From an uncultured Candidatus Saccharibacteria bacterium (GTDB taxonomy: Bacteria; Patescibacteriota; Minisyncoccia; Phycocordibacterales; UBA5272), in the NCBI GenBank assembly GCA_964517625.1, contig CAZFBW010000001.1, positions 40,319-104,318 on the forward strand: 64,000 bases of DNA, given 5' to 3'. Made by a program: the position numbers and the translations under genes. Positions 5,277 through 63,092 of this stretch are shown piece after piece (the stretch's first letter is position 1; every line of letters starts with the position of its first letter). The notes beneath the pieces were generated by a model, which was not told the origin of the DNA, made no database searches, and worked only from the letters and a program-made list of their open reading frames with translations.

Positions 5277-5804
5277 TTAAATTGACTTTACTTTCAATTT
5301 TGTCTGTCGCGCTTTGTCTAACTTTGGAAGTCTGATGATGAGTAGCCCGTGCTTCTCAACTGCTTCGGCTTCTTCAATTTCTACTTCATGAGGAAGGAGG
5401 ATGGTTCGTGAGAAACTTCCCCAGTAGAGTTCTTTGTAAAAGTAGTCATCATGAGAAACTTGTGTATTGCCATCACGGCGTCCTTTAATAGTAACCATGT
5501 CGCGCGTAATAGAAAGGTGGAGGTCTTCAGGTTTTACACCAGCAACCATGGCCTCGATGATAATTTCAGTAGGGGTCTGGTAGACATCAACTGAAAGCTC
5601 TCCCTCTTCTGGGTCATCTTCAGAACTTTCTTCAACATGAGCAACAGAACGACGAGATGGAGTTTCAACTTTTCCTCGAGATGAATGCTTAATCTGAAGC
5701 TCTTCCTCATCGTCTTGTTCTACGACACTGATTGGCTCTTCTTCATCGTCAACACTGATTGAACCAGCAAGACGTTCGAAGAAGGATTTTTTTTCTTTAA
5801 GCAT
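5277..5804 (-). CDS. Hsp20/alpha-crystallin family small heat shock protein
   Basis: Alpha-crystallin domain (…VDVYQTPTEIIIEAMVAGVKPEDLHLSITRDMVTIKGRR…) with an acidic linker. The internal Met at 5804 is taken as the start. Confidence 0.7.
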   Translation of the reverse strand: MLKEKKSFFERLAGSISVDDEEEPISVVEQDDEEELQIKHSSRGKVETPSRRSVAHVEESSEDDPEEGELSVDVYQTPTEIIIEAMVAGVKPEDLHLSITRDMVTIKGRRDGNTQVSHDDYFYKELYWGSFSRTILLPHEVEIEEAEAVEKHGLLIIRLPKLDKARQTKLKVKSI

Positions 5805-5954
5805 AATAAAAATGGTGTAAGCCTGTAAGGGTGTATGTATACAGTATACGCGCTCTATGTCAATAAATAACAAATGCTATCCACAGTCCAAGGAGGGACA
5901 GTAAAGTGTTCAAATATACAGAAAAACCGAGAGTTTGAATGATTACGAGGCAGG

Positions 5955-8099
5955 TTAATTCCAAGAAGTAACAATAAGCATTCTATCTTCAGGTGTTTTT
6001 ATGTATTTCCAAATTTCCTCAGTAATAAAAGGCATGAAGGGATGAATCACAACAAGCTGTTCACGGAGTAAGGTAAGGAGGAGTGTCTGTGCACTTTCTT
6101 TGTTGTTGTTTTCGAGAATGCGAACCTTACGAGTTTCGATGAGAACGTCGCAGAAGGTCTTCCAGAAGTAGTCGTAGATTTTTTCAGAGGCGAGGTGCAG
6201 GCGATAGTTTTCAATATCGTCAGTAATGTCCTTTTTGATTGCTTGCCAGGATTGGTATACCTCTTCATCTTCTTTTGTAAGTGGTACAGGTTTTTCAAAG
6301 TCCGCCGTTCTTTCCAAAACGAAACGTGATGCGTTCCAAATTTTGTTTGAGAAGAGCTTGTATGCCTTTACTTTATCTTCGCCAAGTTTCAAATCGTTTC
6401 CTGCTCCGTTTCCTACAATAAGCGCCATGCGAAGGGCATCGGTTCCATATTTACTGGAGAGGTCGCGTGGGTCAAGAGCGTTGTTGAGGGACTTACTCAT
6501 CTTGCGACCCTGTGCATCGCGCACAAGTCCGTGCAAGTACACCGTCTTAAATGGAACAGTGTTGAGTGCATACGTTGAAAACAAAATCATACGCGCAACC
6601 CAGAAGAACAAAATGTCATGACCAGTTTCAAGCACATCGGTTGGATGAAATGTTTTAAAGTCTTCTGTATCATGTGGCCAACCAAGTGTAGAGAATGTCC
6701 ACAGTCCAGACGAGAACCATGTGTCGAGCGTGTCCTCATCTTGTACCCACTCGTTACCAGATGGCGCTTCTAACCCACAAAAAAGTTCATCACCTTTGTA
6801 CCAAACAGGAACACGATGGCCGTACCAAATTTGTCGCGAGATGCACCAGTCTCGCAAATTATCAATCCAGTGGAAATACACTTTTTCAAATCGGTCAGGA
6901 AGAATTTGAGTGTTGTGAGATGCAACTGCGTCGCGCATTAATTGTTTTAGCGTTGTTGTTTTTCCAAAATGTTTGAACTCTTTATTAACCGCAATCCACC
7001 ATTGAAGTTTTGGAAGTGGTTCAACGATACCGCCAGTTCGTTCTGCTGTTGGTACATTTTGTTTTGATTCTTCTTCGCTTATAAGCAAATTGTTTTCACG
7101 AAGCCAATTTACGATGTATTCACGTGCGTCAGTTACCTTCTTTCCGTTAAGCTCTTCGTTTTTGAGACCGTACATTTTAGCGTACTCGTTGATAACTTGT
7201 CTGCTTTCTAGGCGGTGACGCTCTTTCATGTCCCAGTCAATTGCACTGTGCGCAGGGGTCACACCGAGCGCTCCCGTACCAAAATCTTTTTCGACGGCGG
7301 TATCCGCAATGATTTTGACTGAAATGGGGCATCCAGCAAATTGAATATCAAAGATTTTACCTACATATTGTTTGTAGCGTTCATCGTCTGGATGCACCGC
7401 CACCGCAGTGTCTCCCACTTTTGTTTCTGGGCGGGTGGTGGAGATGGCGATAGGAAAATCAGGGGAATATTTGAAGGTATAGAGCTTGGTTGTGCGCTCT
7501 TCCATGACTATTTCATCGTCGGAAATTGTGGTTTGGCCTTTTGGGTCCCAGTTTACTATGCGTTCTCCGCGGTAAATAAGGCCATCATCATACATTTTTT
7601 TAAACATGGTACGCACCGCCAAGTTTCTCTCCTCGTCCATCGTGAAAGCAAGTCTCGACCAATCAAGTGAGGCACCCATGGTGCGGAGTTGGGAAAGAAT
7701 AGTGTTTTGGCTTTCAAGTGCAAAGTCATTAACGCGCCGCAATAGTTCTTCACGACCAATGTCATGTCTGTTTTTACCTTCTTCTTTTTGAATTTTCTTT
7801 TCAACTACCGATTGTGTGGCAATTGCCGCATGGTCAGTTCCAGGAAGCCAGAGTGTTTTGTATCCGCGCATACGTTTGAAGCGAATGAGAATATCTTCAA
7901 TCACAAGCATGAGTGCATGGCCGGTGTGGAGCGTACCGGTAACATTTGGTGGAGGAAGAATAATGGTGTAGGCGCCCTTGTCAGAAGCGGGGAGGTTGTC
8001 TGGATTAAAGTACCCACTTTTCTCCCATGCTTCATAGAGCGGTTTTTCAACCGATTGAGCATCAAATGGTTTGGTTAGTTGTTCTGGCAATTGCTTCAT
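5955..8099 (-). CDS. valS: Valyl-tRNA synthetase (compact 714-aa form)
   Basis: PPPNVTGTLHTGHA (HIGH region) and GRKMSKSLNN (KMSKS); class I editing-type aaRS architecture. Confidence 0.9.
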   Translation of the reverse strand: MKQLPEQLTKPFDAQSVEKPLYEAWEKSGYFNPDNLPASDKGAYTIILPPPNVTGTLHTGHALMLVIEDILIRFKRMRGYKTLWLPGTDHAAIATQSVVEKKIQKEEGKNRHDIGREELLRRVNDFALESQNTILSQLRTMGASLDWSRLAFTMDEERNLAVRTMFKKMYDDGLIYRGERIVNWDPKGQTTISDDEIVMEERTTKLYTFKYSPDFPIAISTTRPETKVGDTAVAVHPDDERYKQYVGKIFDIQFAGCPISVKIIADTAVEKDFGTGALGVTPAHSAIDWDMKERHRLESRQVINEYAKMYGLKNEELNGKKVTDAREYIVNWLRENNLLISEEESKQNVPTAERTGGIVEPLPKLQWWIAVNKEFKHFGKTTTLKQLMRDAVASHNTQILPDRFEKVYFHWIDNLRDWCISRQIWYGHRVPVWYKGDELFCGLEAPSGNEWVQDEDTLDTWFSSGLWTFSTLGWPHDTEDFKTFHPTDVLETGHDILFFWVARMILFSTYALNTVPFKTVYLHGLVRDAQGRKMSKSLNNALDPRDLSSKYGTDALRMALIVGNGAGNDLKLGEDKVKAYKLFSNKIWNASRFVLERTADFEKPVPLTKEDEEVYQSWQAIKKDITDDIENYRLHLASEKIYDYFWKTFCDVLIETRKVRILENNNKESAQTLLLTLLREQLVVIHPFMPFITEEIWKYIKTPEDRMLIVTSWN

Positions 8100-24260: not shown

Positions 24261-24328
24261 AGGAAAATAGTACCAGAATAGGGGGAAAGCGCAATGAGGG
24301 GGAGAGAAACATGGTCGTCATTATGTTG

Positions 24329-24415
24329 CGGAGAGAGCGAGATTCGAACTCGCGGACCCAATAAAGGGTCGACAGTTTAGTAAACTGTTGATTTAAACCA
24401 CTCATCCATCTCTCC
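24329..24415 (-). tRNA. Type-II (long variable arm) tRNA, Ser-like, with apparent anticodon ACU (unusual A34)
   Basis: GGAGAGAUGGAUGAGUGGUUUAAAUCA-ACAGU-UUACUAA-ACUGU-variable arm-GCGAG-TTCGAAT-CTCGC-UCUCUCC-G. G73 discriminator. A TATAAT promoter lies about 30 nt upstream. The anticodon is read from a hand fold. Confidence 0.6.
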
Positions 24416-24441: not shown

Positions 24442-24465
24442 GCGGCGCAGAATTATAGTCGCTTT
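24442..24465 (-). promoter_or_regulatory. tRNA promoter -10 region (minus strand aaagcgacTATAATtctgcgccgc); 24-nt motif repeated at 26223..26246
   Basis: Exact TATAAT positioned correctly for the tRNA at 24415. The same 24-mer recurs 1.78 kb away. Confidence 0.55.
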
Positions 24466-24595
24466 GCTCCTTAATTCTGCATCCTGCAAAAATATGGTTG
24501 CCCCACTCCTTCTTGTGTTGCTAGACGCAACACGTGCGAAGTGATTTGAAGCTTTTTTGTATGGAACGCTTCGCTTGCAAAAAACTTAAAATCAG

Positions 24596-24682
24596 CGGAG
24601 ACGATGGGATTTGAACCCATGAAGGGCGTAAACCCTTGCCTCGTTAGCAGTGAGGTGCCTTCGACCACTCAGCCACGTCTCC
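24596..24682 (-). tRNA. tRNA-Ser (anticodon GCU)
   Basis: Type-II tRNA. Acceptor GGAGACG/CGUCUCC, G73, anticodon loop CUGCUAA, long variable arm, T-arm ATGGG-TTCAAAT-CCCAT. Confidence 0.8.
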
Positions 24683-24801
24683 GAATCGTCATATTCTAGC
24701 ATGATATTCATATCATTTCTAATGGTTGATTAATACCAATATTTTCACAATACGTTTGCTATACTCAAACCAAGTTGATCTTTTACAGGAAAGGGTAAAT
24801 C

Positions 24802-26278: not shown

Positions 26279-26458
26279 GTCACCAAACATATCTTTTTAT
26301 TTCATGACTACATTCATAAAAAGATTGTTTCGCGACCCCGACTTCACCCTCGCTGTTTTTGATTACAAAATCAGACTTCGTCTCGGGTTCAGTTCAAATC
26401 TACTCATTTCTCGCAAAATACAATTGCACAAAGCTCACGCTTCGTGCTCATTATTTTG

Positions 26459-26545
26459 CGGAAATGGTGGGATTTGAACCCACGAACAGATTACTCCGTT
26501 GCCTGATTTCGAGTCAGGTGCCTTCAACCACTCAGCCACATTTCC
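26459..26545 (-). tRNA. tRNA-Ser (anticodon CGA)
   Basis: Type-II tRNA. Acceptor GGAAAUG/CAUUUCC, G73, anticodon stem CCUGA/UCAGG with loop CUCGAAA, T-loop TTCAAAT. Confidence 0.8.
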
Positions 26546-37484: not shown

Positions 37485-40400
37485 ATGAAAACAATTGATA
37501 CAAATAACTTTGACGGACTCACGATTAAAGTCGCATCACCTGAAGCGATTCGTGCGTGGTCATTTGGTGAAGTAACAAAACCAGAAACGATTAACTATCG
37601 TACTGGACGCAGTGAACGCTATGGTTTGTTTGATGAACGAATCTTCGGTCCAGAAAAAGATTACGAATGTTACTGTGGAAAGTACAAGCGTATTCGTTAC
37701 AAGGGGATTGTGTGTGAAAAATGTGGCGTAGAAGTCACTAAGTCTATCGTTCGTCGTGAACGCATGGGTCACATTGAGCTTGCATCTCCTGTTGCGCACA
37801 TCTGGTTCCTTCGTACTGTTCCTTCTCGTATTTCTACCATTCTCGCTCAACCGGTTTCTGATGTTGAAAAAGTTGTGTACTTTGCCGGATACGTTGTTAA
37901 ATCAGTAAACGAAGACACAAAGAAAGAAATTCTTGCAAACATTGACAGTGAATTTAAGGCAAAGGTAAAGTCAGCAAACGATGAAAAGACACAAGACAAA
38001 CTCAAGGAACTTCTCACTGCTGCGAAAAAAGAAATTGAAGAAATTAAGCCATGGAAAATTTTCGATGAGCTTACCTACCACCGCTACTCAATGAAGTACG
38101 GAACATGTTTTGAAGCAGGGATTGGTGCTGATGCATTGTACGAAATCTTCAAGACTATCGATTTGCGAGAGTTGGAAGCAAAGATTGTAAAGCAACTTGA
38201 AAAAGCAGGTGCACTTGAACGTGAAAAAGCTGAGAAGCGTCTTTCACTTGTTCGTTCGTTTATTAACGCCGGTATTCGTCCAGAATGGATGTTTATGACC
38301 GTAATTCCAGTGATTCCAGCAGGCATTCGTCCAATGGTTGCACTCGAAGGTGGTCGTTATGCAGCATCTGATGTGAACGATTTGTATCGTCGCGTGATTA
38401 ACCGAAACAATCGTTTGAAGAAACTTATGGAAATTGGTGCGCCAGATGTAATCTTGCGAAACGAAAAGCGTATTTTGCAAGAAGCATGTGATGCGCTCAT
38501 TGATAACTCAGCTCGCCACGGACAAGACGCGGTAATGAGTCAGTCACAGAAGCGCCAGCTTAAGTCACTTTCTGACAACCTTAAAGGAAAGCAAGGCCTT
38601 CTTCGTGGAAACCTTCTCGGTAAGCGTGTGGACTACTCAGCTCGTTCGGTAATTGTGGTTGGTCCGTCACTTGCTCTTAATGAGTGTGGTCTTCCAAAGC
38701 ACATGGCACTTGAATTGTTCAAGCCATTTGTTATTTCAAAACTTCTTGAACGTGAACACGCGTTTAACATTCGCGGTGCGAACAAGTTGATTGAAGATGG
38801 AATCCCAGAAGTATGGGCAATTCTTGAAGAGTGTATTGAAGGAAAGTATGTGCTCTTAAACCGTGCACCAACACTTCACCGCCTTGGTATTCAAGCGTTT
38901 AATCCTAAACTTATCGAAGGTAATGCTATTTCACTTCACCCACTCGTTTGTCAGGCCTTCAACGCGGACTTCGACGGTGACCAAATGGCTGTTCACTTAC
39001 CACTCTCCGTTGCTGCACAAGAAGAAGCGCGCACGCTCATGGCTGCAAACAGAAACTTGCTTAAGCCGGGTTCTGGAGATTCAATTGTAAACCCACGCAT
39101 GGACATGGTCCTTGGTGCGTATTGGATGACAAAAGAAATTGACGGAGAAAAGGGCGAAGGAAAGTATTTTGCTTCACCAAACGAAGCGATTACTGCGTAC
39201 GATTTTGGTATCGTATCATTCCGCGCGAAGATTTTGGCTATGCCATCTGACAAGGAGAAGTATTCAAAGTTTGAAGGACGTCCATTTGAAACAACGGTCG
39301 GACGCCTTCTCTTTAACTCAGTGTTCCCAAGTGACTTCCCATACATTAATGATGAAGTTACTGGTAAGAAGATGAACACGATTGTTGATGAAGTGATTGC
39401 AAAATATGGACTTGAACGCGCTCCAACAATTATCGACAAGATTAAATCATTCGGATACAAGTATGCGACGGTGTCTGGTACAACCTGGAGTATTGATGCA
39501 ATCAAGGTGCCAAAAGAAAAGAAGGCAATGATTGCTGAAGGATGGACCAGTATCTCTGCAATCGACGCTGACTTCGAAGAAGGTCTTCTCTCTGCAGAAG
39601 AGCGATACGAAAAGAAGATTCAAACATGGAAAAATATTCGTATTCGTCTCGAGAAGCTTATGCCAGAAGCGTTCGAAAAGCACGGTTCTGTGTATGACTT
39701 GATTACATCCGGTGCCCGCGGTTCTATCGCCCAAGTGATTCAGATGGCGGGTATGAAGGGTATTATTGTGAACAACTCAGGTCGTGAAATTGACTTCCCT
39801 GCGATTTCTTCATACAAGGAAGGACTTTCTCCACTTGAATACTTCATTACCACTTATGGTGCTCGTAAGGGTAACTCAGACACCGCGCTTAAAACTGCGC
39901 AAGCTGGATACCTTACACGCCGTCTCGTGGATGTGGCACAGGATGCTATCATCACCGAACTTGATTGTGGTACTAAAGAAAGCAAGGTAGTTCGTACAGA
40001 TAATATTCTTGGTATTACTGTTCCAATTTCAAAATCAATTCGTGGACGCGTTCTTGCAGAAGATATTGTAGTTGACGGAGCGGTGGTGTTTAAGAAGAAT
40101 CATCTCATCACAAAAGATGACGCGATGACTATCGAAAAAGCGGGAGCAACAGAAGTGCGAGTATTTTCTCCACTCATGTGTGAATCGCTTCATGGTATTT
40201 GTCAGAAGTGTTACGGACTCGATATGGGTCGGAACAAGAAGGTGGACTTGGGAGAAGCGGTTGGTATTGTTGCTGCACAAGCCATCGGTGAACCAGGAAC
40301 ACAGCTAACTATGCGTACGTTCCACGCCGGAGGTGTAGCAGGTACTGACATTACTCAAGGTCTTCCTCGTGTTGAAGAAATCTTTGAACGTCGCGCACCA

Positions 40401-41081
40401 AAGAATCCTGCGATTATTGCTCACGATGCAGGAGATGTTGTTGCAATCAGGGATGAAGGTAAGGAAAAGATTCTTGTACTTGCTGTTGATGATGATGCAA
40501 AGGGTAACAAAGCAGGCAAGCGCGTTGAGTACACGATTCCATTCCGTCGCCAACCAATTGTAAAAGTCGGAGAACATGTGAAGCGTGGCCAATTCTTGAC
40601 TGATGGTTCAGCAGATATTGAAGAACTCTTTACCTATGCTGGTAAGGAAATTGCTGAAGAATATATTGTTTCAGAAATTAACAAGGTATACGAACTTCAA
40701 GGTGCTGCAATTTCACGTAAGCACGTGGAAATCATCATCAAGCAAATGTTTGGACGTATCAAGATTACTGCTCCAGGAGATTCACGCTTCACGCAGTCAG
40801 ATGTTGTTGAAGTCGCGACATTCCGTGGAGAAAATATGAAGGTTAAAGCAAACGGGGGGACAGAAGCAAAAGGTAGATACCTTATCTTAGGTATTACCGA
40901 AGTTGCTCTCTCAACGGATTCATGGCTCTCATCTGCGTCATTCCAAAATACAACTCGCGTTCTTATCACTGCTGCAACTCGCGGACAGACTGATGAACTA
41001 CGAGGGCTTAAGGAAAACGTAATCATCGGACGCTTGATTCCAGCAGGAACAGGACTCCGAGAAAAAGAAGAAGATAAATAG
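37485..41081 (+). CDS. rpoC: DNA-directed RNA polymerase subunit beta'
   Basis: Zinc-binding CYCGKY…C, the NADFDGD catalytic motif; 1198 aa. Confidence 0.95.
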
Positions 41082-52708: not shown

Positions 52709-54376
52709 TTAGAACGCCTCGAGCTCCTTCGTGCGGAGGACCTCTTCGATCCTGTCGGCGAACACTTGGTTGATGACCGTGTTGCCGTCCGTTTCGTCGA
52801 GGTAGGCGACATACGCGCCACCGTTCATGCCTTGCGCACGCAGGGTCACGACCGCCTGACGGTCGGGAACCAGCGCGATTTCCTGGACGCCGTGCACGTC
52901 GTTGACGTACACCATCTTCTTGGCCAGGACCTTGGCCTTGCCCTCGAACGTGGGGCGTTCGAAGGTGACCTTCTCGCCGTCGACGAGGTACTTGTGACCG
53001 CTGGCCGAACGGCGCACCACCTTGTGGGCGGGGCTACCACCCTTGTTCCGGATCACCACGTGGATGCCCGGATTGAACAGCTTGGCCACGTGGTCGTTGT
53101 CGACCTCCAGCACCTCGAGACCTTCCCCGCGCTCGTTGTAGACGACCACCGGGTTTTCTTCGATGCTGGCCATCAGCTTGGCCTGGCGTTCGCCCGCCTC
53201 ACGCGCCTTGCGTTCGGCTTCATCAGCCTTGCGCTTGGCGCTCATCTTGCTCTGGGCCGCGTTCAGCTTGGCCCTGATCACGTCCTCCTCCGCGGTGAAG
53301 CGGGGGTTGGCGCTGAGCAACTTGGCGACCTTCTGCTTGAAGATCACCGCCTGCACGGCGTTCATGCCACCGTGCAGGATGAGGATGTCGTCGTTGCCGA
53401 CGACCTCCACTTTCTCCGTCTCGCTCTTGAGCGAGACGGTGGTGAACAGCATCTGGTCCTTCCCGGACCTGCCCTTCGTGCCGATGACGATGAAACCGTC
53501 GTCGGCCGTCTGGATCAGGTTGTAGAAGAACTCGAGCGACTTGTCCTGCTGGTGGATGTCCCAGAGGCAGCGGTTGCCGCCGTCGGGCATGTGCAGGTAG
53601 GCGTTCGTGGGCACGTAGCCCCAGTCCTTCCCGCCGTACTTGGCGGAGCGGAACAGGGTAATGACCACCTTGCCAGCCTTGACCTCGAAGGAGATCTGGC
53701 CGGTCTTGCCCTTGTCGGTCGTCGCCTCGTTCTCGAGGACGAATTCCGTGACCACGCTCGCCGACTTGGCGGGCGCGGTGTTGGAGTTCGTCTTGGCGCT
53801 GACGCGCTCGTCCTTCTCGATGTCGATCAGGGTGTTCTGCACCACGACTTCACCGCCGAAGTACTCGCGCAGGTAGCCGATGATGGCGTCCTGGGCTTTC
53901 TTCACCTGCGGGTTGGGGGCGGTCGACTGGAAGCCGGGCTTCGAGAGCCAGGCAGCCTTCACGAACGTCTCCTTCCGGAGACCCATCAGGGGGTGGTCCT
54001 CGAAGGTGTACCCTTCGTGGGTGTACCCTTCGTGGGCGTGCAGGTAGACCACCGTGAGCTCGCGCTTCGTGCCGTCCTTGTTGGGACGGTACTCCAGGTC
54101 GAGGTGCACGGAGGGCTTGTCGCCGCCCGGGAACGTGTACGGTCCGGGCAGGCCAGCGATGAAGGACTCCTTGTCGGAGCTCTTCCCCGCGTTCTGCTCG
54201 ATGTACCAGGCCGGACCGGCCGCACTGCGAGCCTTGTCCTTCTGGGCCTTGACGGCCCTCTTGTTGTCCGCGACGGCCTTGGCGGCGGTTTGCCGCTCCG
54301 CGATCGTCTTGGGCGAACCCTTGCCGTTGCCACCCTTGTTGCTGTTGCCTTTGTTGCCGGATTTGGCCTGGGCCAT
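52709..54376 (-). CDS. Hypothetical 556-aa protein on a GC-rich island (about 64% GC), with a Gly/Lys-rich N-terminus and a HEGYTHEGYT repeat
   Basis: Normal amino-acid composition on the minus strand only; the plus-strand 575-aa ORF is the usual L/V/G/R-rich antisense artefact. A Shine-Dalgarno site (AAGGAGAA) lies 7 nt before the ATG at 54376. A TTGACA -35 is at 54518..54523 on the minus strand. Confidence 0.65.
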   Translation of the reverse strand: MAQAKSGNKGNSNKGGNGKGSPKTIAERQTAAKAVADNKRAVKAQKDKARSAAGPAWYIEQNAGKSSDKESFIAGLPGPYTFPGGDKPSVHLDLEYRPNKDGTKRELTVVYLHAHEGYTHEGYTFEDHPLMGLRKETFVKAAWLSKPGFQSTAPNPQVKKAQDAIIGYLREYFGGEVVVQNTLIDIEKDERVSAKTNSNTAPAKSASVVTEFVLENEATTDKGKTGQISFEVKAGKVVITLFRSAKYGGKDWGYVPTNAYLHMPDGGNRCLWDIHQQDKSLEFFYNLIQTADDGFIVIGTKGRSGKDQMLFTTVSLKSETEKVEVVGNDDILILHGGMNAVQAVIFKQKVAKLLSANPRFTAEEDVIRAKLNAAQSKMSAKRKADEAERKAREAGERQAKLMASIEENPVVVYNERGEGLEVLEVDNDHVAKLFNPGIHVVIRNKGGSPAHKVVRRSASGHKYLVDGEKVTFERPTFEGKAKVLAKKMVYVNDVHGVQEIALVPDRQAVVTLRAQGMNGGAYVAYLDETDGNTVINQVFADRIEEVLRTKELEAF

Positions 54377-54566
54377 GTGATTCTCCTTGTGTCGTAAGTA
54401 GCGGGGGCCGAAATTGGCCTCCCGCATGGTGCTATGGGTTGCTTGCGGTGTTCAAAGTACTGCTACTACAAGGGCCTGGCAAGAACCGTAGTTCTCCCAA
54501 GCCTCGTACTTCTACCCTATATTATTGCATATTTTAACACTTTTGTCAATACCACACACACACTCC

Positions 54567-62975: not shown

Positions 62976-63059
62976 GCGTCGGTGGTGGAGTGGTCAATCA
63001 CAACAGACTGTAAATCTGTCGCCCTTAGGGCTTCGAAGGTTCAAATCCTTCCCGGCGCA
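62976..63059 (+). tRNA. tRNA-Tyr (anticodon GUA), type II, with an encoded CCA
   Basis: Acceptor GCGUCGG/CCGGCGC, A73 then CCA, anticodon stem ACAGA/UCUGU with loop CUGUAAA, long variable arm, T-arm GAAGG-TTCAAAT-CCTTC. Terminator at 63063..63090. Confidence 0.85.
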
Positions 63060-63092
63060 CCAAGAAAAATACCCATCAGGGTATTTTTTAAT

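Follow-up and report, generated by a model that had tools for sequence, protein, structure and literature searches.

A conserved class-II serine tRNA with the anticodon ACU in Patescibacteria and phages, a probable reader of AGU codons

The window (the whole stretch of 64,000 nucleotides that was analyzed) contains a gene for a serine tRNA with the anticodon ACU. The usual reasoning for the missing adenosine at wobble position 34 (A34) is that inosine, or loose pairing of A34, would misread the codons of the neighboring amino acid. In a review of 2021 (PMC8007984), A34 was described as "universally missing" from the Ser/Arg split box, with no CPR phyla among those sampled. In a full-text literature search, no account of a natural tRNA-Ser(ACU) came up, an earlier mention in genomic surveys being possible, and automatic annotation certainly already labels Ser(ACU) genes.

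The tRNA-Ser(ACU) gene and its surroundings

Eight tRNAs, including tRNA-Ser(ACU), were found in the window using ARAGORN. The features of the locus are as follows (window coordinates, with the evidence in brackets):

24328–24415, minus strand: tRNA-Ser(ACU) gene (ARAGORN, Rfam RF00005, fold z = -4.5, family covariation)
24377–24383, minus strand: anticodon loop UUACUAA, i.e. U32 U33 A34 C35 U36 A37 A38 (sequence, ARAGORN)
24452–24457, minus strand: TATAAT hexamer, a possible -10 element, ending 36 nt upstream of tRNA-Ser(ACU) (sequence)
24595–24682, minus strand: canonical AGY isoacceptor tRNA-Ser(GCU), located upstream of the ACU gene at a distance of 179 nt (ARAGORN, Rfam)
24693–24721, minus strand: promoter-like TAGAAA-17-TAGAAT (with TG) upstream of tRNA-Ser(GCU) (promoter scan)
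26458–26545, minus strand: tRNA-Ser(CGA), a third Ser isoacceptor nearby (ARAGORN, Rfam)

The anticodon act was assigned by ARAGORN to a tRNA-Ser at 24328–24415 on the minus strand. The Rfam model RF00005 matched the gene over its full length (model positions 1–71) at 24329–24415 with 56.3 bits and E = 1.9e-9, the gathering score being 29, which bears out the coordinates 24329–24415 given in an earlier sequence-only reading of this DNA, with the gene lying on the minus strand. The minus-strand sequence is GGAGAGAUGGAUGAGUGGUUUAAAUCAACAGUUUACUAAACUGUCGACCCUUUAUUGGGUCCGCGAGUUCGAAUCUCGCUCUCUCCGC. Its acceptor stem GGAGAGA/UCUCUCC has 7 bp and is followed by U8 and G9. The D stem consists of 3 bp (G10-C25, A11-U24 and U12-A23) closed by a G13/A22 mismatch, and G18G19 are present in the D loop. 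The variable region of 18 nt contains a 4-bp stem (ACCC/GGGU), the T arm GCGAG-UUCGAAU-CUCGC with its 5-bp stem is canonical, and the 3' end is formed by G73 followed by C74, CCA not being encoded.

The 5-bp anticodon stem ACAGU/ACUGU encloses the loop, with the ACT anticodon at 24381–24379 on the minus strand (AGT on the plus strand), which is position 35 of the gene according to ARAGORN. In the minimum-energy fold (z = -4.5), the stem is lengthened by U32-A38 and U33-A37 around ACU. Since the loop is symmetric around ACU, no other anticodon results from a register shift, and the shifted registers (CUA, UUA and 9-nt loops) were ruled out. The sequence-only reading had placed ACU at tRNA positions 34–36, within the loop UUACUAA, and proposed an automated fold as a check; ARAGORN, which reads act, keeps the same loop register.

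Alignment of the window tRNAs showed that Ser(ACU), Ser(GCU) and Ser(CGA) all start with GGA and end with ...CCGC. The three also share the acceptor pairs G1-C72, G2-C71 and A3-U70 together with G73, unlike the class-II Leu and Tyr tRNAs of the window, which have A73. The earlier assignment to class II, with a Ser-type body, a long variable arm, G73 and a GGAGAGA acceptor, agrees with ARAGORN, Rfam, the fold and the alignment, and it is confirmed that tRNA-Ser(ACU) is a true, well-folded class-II serine tRNA. A34 in place of G34 sets it apart from the tRNA-Ser(GCU) isoacceptor. A tRNA-Sec or allo-tRNA was ruled out, as the gene has a 7-bp acceptor and a 5-bp T stem and not the combinations 8/5, 9/4, 8/4 or 9/3, and its anticodon is ACU and not the UCA of tRNA-Sec. 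Note that the three Ser tRNAs and the Leu tRNA of the window do not encode CCA, and tRNA-Tyr (62976–63062) is followed by CCA.

The spacer of 179 nt between the two AGY isoacceptors is in line with the distance of 180 bp stated before. An own TATAAT promoter had also been claimed for the ACU gene. The hexamer is indeed present, but no -35 partner was recognizable for the site at 24457–24452 and the promoter scan did not call it, so that this promoter is weakly supported. Across the ACU family, -10-like hexamers were only mildly enriched, 8–19 nt upstream of the tRNA start. Because no terminator was predicted between tRNA-Ser(GCU) and tRNA-Ser(ACU), read-through into the ACU gene from the promoter-like site at 24693–24721 is conceivable. 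The TATAAT hexamer is overlapped by an inverted repeat of 9 bp, GCAGAATTA...TAATTCTGC, whose loop has 16 nt (24447–24480, minus strand); the repeat has no T-run after it, unlike an intrinsic terminator. In seven other loci (L021, L018, L216, L117, L015, L136 and L145), the GCU-to-ACU spacer contains a stretch resembling a Ser-tRNA 3' end (GACCGAATCCC..TCTCCGC). These stretches may derive from a tRNA 3' half that was once duplicated, e.g., as old integration scars. The spacer of the window contains at most a faint trace of a Ser-tRNA 3' end, TTCAAATC.

The window is an ordinary chromosome segment with a G+C content of about 42%. It contains genes for a class I aminoacyl-tRNA synthetase, glmS, secA, rpoC, dnaG, rpoD, obg, gatB and clpB; rpoB (1067 aa) and infB are both short. 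Next to the tRNAs, genes for an ABC transporter, a fatty-acid desaturase, a formyltransferase and a DEAD-box helicase are located, and no integrase or phage genes were found flanking the tRNAs of the window. The segment is syntenic with a Candidatus Paceibacterota MAG (L021) at 70–75% nucleotide identity, and this MAG carries the same tandem GCU-then-ACU order. The lineage of the window was deduced from this synteny, as look-ups of identical proteins for the desaturase and ClpB gave no record. An ORF of 572 aa (52709–54427, minus strand) has a local G+C content of 51% against about 42%, a Lys/Gly/Asn-rich N-terminus and no Pfam match; an ORF of 575 aa that runs antisense to it, on the plus strand, is spurious.

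The ACU family in Patescibacteria and in phage tRNA arrays

One genome per GTDB species was scanned with a pattern consisting of a Ser-type D loop followed by YTACTAA, which gave at least 120 matches. Among the matches listed, tRNA-Ser(ACU) was called by ARAGORN in 114 of the 120 fetched loci (115 with the window), and these contained 105 distinct ACU sequences, that of the window included. Nearly all of the listed genome matches belong to Patescibacteria, and the groups found among them are Saccharibacteria, Paceibacteria/Parcubacteria, Nomura-, Adler-, Taylor-, Lloyd-, Magasanik- and Pacebacteria. Together with the metagenome matches, the family comprises more than 200 distinct ACU sequences, with the same A34 in more than 200 independent assemblies.

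The alignment of the 105 listed sequences revealed cloverleaf pairing in 95.8% of cells. Changes on both sides occurred in 18 of the 23 pairs (394 compensatory cells); the observed covariation was reached by 0 of 500 shuffles, and slid-partner controls paired in 32–58%. The acceptor, D, anticodon and T stems were each 99.5–100% paired with freely varying sequence, and pair 7-66, for example, was U-A in 37 sequences, A-U in 35 and G-C in 32. In the same sequences, G1-C72 was present in 105/105, A3-U70 in 104/105 and G2-C71 in 103/105. The variable arm is retained across the family, and MAFFT aligns it poorly (67% paired). The T loop GTTCGAATC, which was not fixed by the search pattern, was invariant or near-invariant; G17, G18 and T19 were invariant as well, the G18G19 region being fixed by the pattern. 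Because YTACTAA and the D loop were set by the pattern of the first scan, conservation at these places in the 105-sequence alignment is partly by construction. Encoded CCA was present in some members of the family and absent in others. Judged from the alignment, the covariation pattern is characteristic of a tRNA that is kept by purifying selection, and by comparative criteria the ACU gene is functional.

In the metagenome scan, the D and anticodon arms of the family were used with the anticodon left as NNN, and at least 120 matches were obtained. The anticodon was ACT in 110 and GCT in 10 of the 120 matches listed, and no other anticodon occurred. The ten GCT matches were located in dense tRNA arrays and had different T arms, so they were attributed to other lineages that share the arm sequence only. 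The loop UUACUAA was found in 219 of the 220 cellular family members among the matches listed (genome and metagenome sets). On this comparison, A34 is effectively invariant within the Patescibacteria-type body and the ACU anticodon is under selection.

The relation to tRNA-Ser(GCU) was evaluated from sequence identity, which was 80.6% among ACU tRNAs. ACU and GCU tRNAs from this set of loci shared 60.5% identity, and the two tRNAs of one locus shared 61.8%. In the listed genome set, the nearest neighbor of an ACU tRNA was another ACU tRNA in 104 of 105 cases. The sole exception was L029, a MAG labelled "uncultured archaeon", where adjacent ACU and GCU tRNAs (5398–5657, minus strand) have acceptor and T arms in common, most of their differences lying in the anticodon arm; this pair suggests an independent duplication or origin, or concerted evolution. 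By these identities, the ACU tRNA is an old paralog of the GCU tRNA with its own sequence cluster. Among the matches listed, the fetched locus also contained GCU in 70 of 115 cases from the genome set and in 60 of 105 from the metagenomes. The pairs were divergent in 38 and 46 of the listed loci and tandem (GCU-then-ACU) in 28 and 13, for genomes and metagenomes, respectively, with a median gap of 107–193 nt. When only loci with enough flank were considered, GCU was found within 3 kb of ACU in 15/19 genome and 8/10 metagenome loci (about 80%).

The same pattern scan of IMG/VR viral contigs (L241–L360) gave at least 120 matches. Among those listed, at least 119 viral Ser(ACU) genes with 86 distinct sequences were found, most of them in arrays of up to 27 tRNAs in which U34 species are dominant. 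The Patescibacteria-type arm was present in 4 of the 119 listed viral copies, and GCU accompanied ACU in 1 of the 35 viral loci with 3 kb flanks. Taken together, the genome, metagenome and viral ACU tRNAs form at least 18 clusters at 25% distance; a few MAG matches labelled Planctomycetota, Verrucomicrobiota, etc., cluster with viral sequences. A Ser(ACU) gene is also present in a phage in culture, Ralstonia phage RP13 (LC554890.1, 138609–138698; L363:302–391). Other cultured phages of similar sequence had mostly Ser(UGA) or Ser(GCU), and ACU was found in RP13 only. Ser(ACU) is frequent in the tRNA arrays of phages. The copy in the window, in contrast, is located on a chromosome among secA, rpoBC, infB and clpB; it has the Patescibacteria-type body and is paired with GCU, which the viral copies almost never are.

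From these distributions, tRNA-Ser(ACU) belongs to an old, conserved isoacceptor family typical of Patescibacteria chromosomes and usually located beside GCU, and it recurs independently in phage arrays, a spread that the sequence-only reading had not foreseen. That ACU has arisen repeatedly and independently speaks for an advantage in decoding and leaves room for escape from a nuclease.

Decoding by tRNA-Ser(ACU) and the state of A34

To evaluate the meaning of the AGN codons, all ORFs with 120 codons or more were taken from the window and from 240 loci and compared by an all-against-all BLASTP search (7,799 alignments at 30–70% identity). AGT aligned to Ser with a frequency of 0.38, TCN with 0.38–0.44 and AGC with 0.35, and the top partner codons of AGT included TCT and TCA. 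AGA aligned to Arg (0.53), Lys (0.20) and Ser (0.03). The AGN box has the standard meaning, namely AGU = Ser and AGA = Arg. Consequently, the reading of AGA by an ICU anticodon would be mis-sense and not a reassignment.

SerRS does not read the anticodon, so a tRNA with a Ser-type body should carry serine, and SerRS is most likely the enzyme that charges tRNA-Ser(ACU). Because the enzyme would use the long variable arm and the acceptor end, the replacement of G34 by A34 would be tolerated; in other NNY two-codon families the synthetases read position 34 and A34 would presumably not be tolerated. Our preferred reading, to which we give a probability of about 0.7, is that tRNA-Ser(ACU) is a functional elongator charged by SerRS and dedicated to AGU by Watson–Crick pairing, with A34 probably unmodified; we infer its expression, serylation and selective benefit. 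The tRNA most likely reads AGU through a full Watson–Crick A34-U3 pair, alongside tRNA-Ser(GCU), which covers AGC and, by G-U wobble only, AGU. An unmodified A34, which appears most likely, would make it a narrow AGU-only reader that does not invade the arginine codons AGA and AGG.

Confidence is high, on comparative grounds, that this is a conserved serine tRNA which would decode AGU. It is moderate for the unmodified state of A34, which is suggested by the UACU loop, by an engineered ACU tRNA and by the misreading of AGA that I34 would bring. In the work of Schmitt et al. 2024 (PMC11066159), where unmodified A34 tRNAs are called "extremely rare", an engineered tRNA with the ACU anticodon decoded AGU in E. 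coli at 9.4% and AGG at 0.36%, with AGC and AGA below detection, and carried no inosine modification. Against the preferred reading, the tRNA is formally redundant with GCU by wobble rules, and it is kept in Patescibacteria but not in other AT-biased bacteria.

Deamination of A34 by TadA or a relaxed paralog would instead give Ser(ICU), which would read AGU and AGC and weakly AGA and would serve as a broader or back-up AGY decoder. The editing enzyme itself may well be available. Arg(ACG) was found in 5 loci which also carry tRNA-Ser(ACU), its loop there being CUACGGA, and this implies TadA in those genomes. One metagenome contig (L195) encodes a TadA-like CDA-fold deaminase (HAE...PCxxC; 5929–6498, minus strand) adjoining tRNA-Ser(GCU) (6508–6599, minus strand) and tRNA-Ser(ACU) (6802–6890, plus strand); its identity to E. 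coli TadA is 37%, and it matches NF008113 with 73.5 bits, below the cut-off of 150. Because of these two observations, a deaminase is probably present in some ACU-bearing cells. The reported widening of TadA to tRNA-Leu(AAG) in some bacteria also speaks for this alternative. However, TadA editing requires the motif UACG (PMC13170351), i.e. U33 A34 C35 G36, which tRNA-Ser(ACU) misses: its loop contains UACU with U at position 36, and U32 and A37 also distinguish it from the local Arg(ACG) loop CUACGGA. E. coli TadA left the ACU tRNA unmodified (PMC11066159), and we infer from E. coli that TadA would refuse UACU here as well. In addition, a TadA-like gene beside the tRNA was found in only 1 of about 360 fetched loci (tblastn with an approximate E. 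coli TadA query), and ICU would pair with AGA, which still means Arg here (Arg 0.53, Ser 0.03) and occurs 76 times in the window. Inosine at position 34 is thus improbable in our estimation.

Phage tRNAs are reported to evade tRNA-targeting defenses through anticodon-loop changes, and by the same token an A34 isoacceptor could survive a nuclease or toxin aimed at tRNA-Ser(GCU), or the tRNA could be a non-ribosomal serine donor. Insurance of this kind would explain the presence of the gene in phages as well as in episymbiotic bacteria. It is compatible with the high prevalence in phage arrays, where GCU stands alongside in only 1 of 35 loci with 3 kb flanks, with the existence of at least 18 sequence clusters and with the formal redundancy with GCU. 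On the other hand, to our knowledge there is no nuclease specific for tRNA-Ser(GCU), and none was linked to the tRNA in the fetched loci. The anticodon is strictly ACU, with no other escape variant, and in Patescibacteria the supposedly vulnerable GCU gene is kept right beside the ACU gene. A non-ribosomal donor would need no fixed anticodon; known cell-wall tRNAs lose G18G19 and the T-loop marks, whereas these elongator marks are conserved in tRNA-Ser(ACU), and a cell-wall donor tRNA was ruled out. Both the escape and the donor role therefore seem doubtful.

We have similarly little confidence in a wider proposal in which Ser(ACU) with unmodified A34 would be a standard, selected component of the translation machinery of the whole superphylum, repeatedly reinvented by phages, whose AGU decoding would resist, as that of the GCU tRNA could not, an anticodon-directed attack on the GCU tRNA by a nuclease, a toxin or a host defense. 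If true, tRNA-Ser(ACU) would be a natural escape isoacceptor and the only tolerated A34 tRNA of a split box, possible as SerRS ignores the anticodon.

Patescibacteria genomes are known for extreme streamlining. A neutral duplicate that drifted to A34, a pseudogene or an assembly or sequencing error would fit the formal redundancy with GCU, the lack of a detected -35 element and the unremarkable AGU usage, but is highly improbable given A34 in more than 200 independent assemblies (which rules out an error at this position), strong compensatory covariation, an anticodon kept despite ancient divergence from GCU and retention of the gene in extremely streamlined genomes. A recently mutated paralog, a specialized decoder and a pseudogene had all been considered in the sequence-only reading. 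The recently mutated paralog and the pseudogene are both rejected, as the family of more than 200 distinct sequences has strong compensatory covariation, forms a cluster separate from GCU (about 60% identity) and keeps ACU in the body-only search. The specialized decoder is supported by the conservation, the covariation and the kept ACU anticodon.

Comparison with known tRNAs and codon usage

A dedicated AGU reader with A34 was compared with the tRNAs closest to it in body or anticodon. Bacterial tRNA-Ser(GCU) likewise belongs to class II and has a long variable arm, G73 and a GGA... acceptor stem, it has the same C35 U36 A37 A38 and serves the same codon family, and it adjoins tRNA-Ser(ACU) in most Patescibacteria loci. 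The latter differs in having A34 instead of G34 and a body that clusters separately, with an identity of only about 60%; its expected reading is AGU only, whereas that of tRNA-Ser(GCU) is AGC plus AGU. tRNA-Arg(ACG), the TadA substrate converted to ICG, also has an encoded A34 in the context U33-A34-C35. Unlike it, tRNA-Ser(ACU) has U36 and a class-II body, with UACU in place of UACG (UUACUAA against the local CUACGGA). Mycoplasma tRNA-Thr(AGU) is another tRNA of reduced-genome bacteria with an encoded A34 that is probably unmodified. It belongs to a four-codon box, where misreading is harmless, whereas tRNA-Ser(ACU) belongs to the split Ser/Arg box and, unlike the Mycoplasma tRNA, supplements the G34 tRNA rather than replacing it. 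Among the engineered A34 tRNAs of Schmitt et al. 2024 (PMC11066159), the ACU version read AGU selectively.

Being conserved in Patescibacteria and recurring in phages, Ser(ACU) can be considered a natural counter-example to the "universally missing" A34. It makes two subjects testable in real organisms, namely in vivo decoding by an unmodified wobble adenosine and the avoidance of non-cognate A34 tRNAs by TadA. Models of codon adaptation and tRNA supply for CPR bacteria and phages should give AGU its own Watson–Crick reader, and attempts to reassign AGU specifically could use Ser(ACU) as a natural scaffold.

Codon usage in the window was also considered (AGT 127, AGC 69, AGA 76 and AGG 24 of 14,409 codons). 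An imbalance between AGU and AGC had been suggested as a check, and the ratio of 127:69 (1.84) falls inside the range of other codon boxes. AGY codons are scarce in rpoC (37485–41081, plus strand), with 6 AGT and 1 AGC against 56 TCN, i.e. 7 of the 63 Ser codons of this gene, whereas AGY makes up 24% across the window. In a comparison of rpoC with 150 homologs, which covers only these 6 AGT and 1 AGC together with 2 AGA, one AGT falls in a column with at least 80% proline, the counts being too low for a conclusion. Given the depletion of AGY in rpoC, no strong demand for the decoding of AGU is apparent.

Two further observations concern the tRNA sets that accompany Ser(ACU). Two tRNA-Asp(AUC) genes, another case of A34 in a split codon box, were called by ARAGORN in the viral tRNA arrays. 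A tRNA-Ile(UAU) was found in 15 of the 220 cellular ACU-bearing loci (e.g., L005:7689–7764, L023:1780–1854, L039:508–581 and L074:931–1005), which suggests that these genomes read AUA by a U34 tRNA and not by the usual tRNA-Ile2(CAU)/TilS route.
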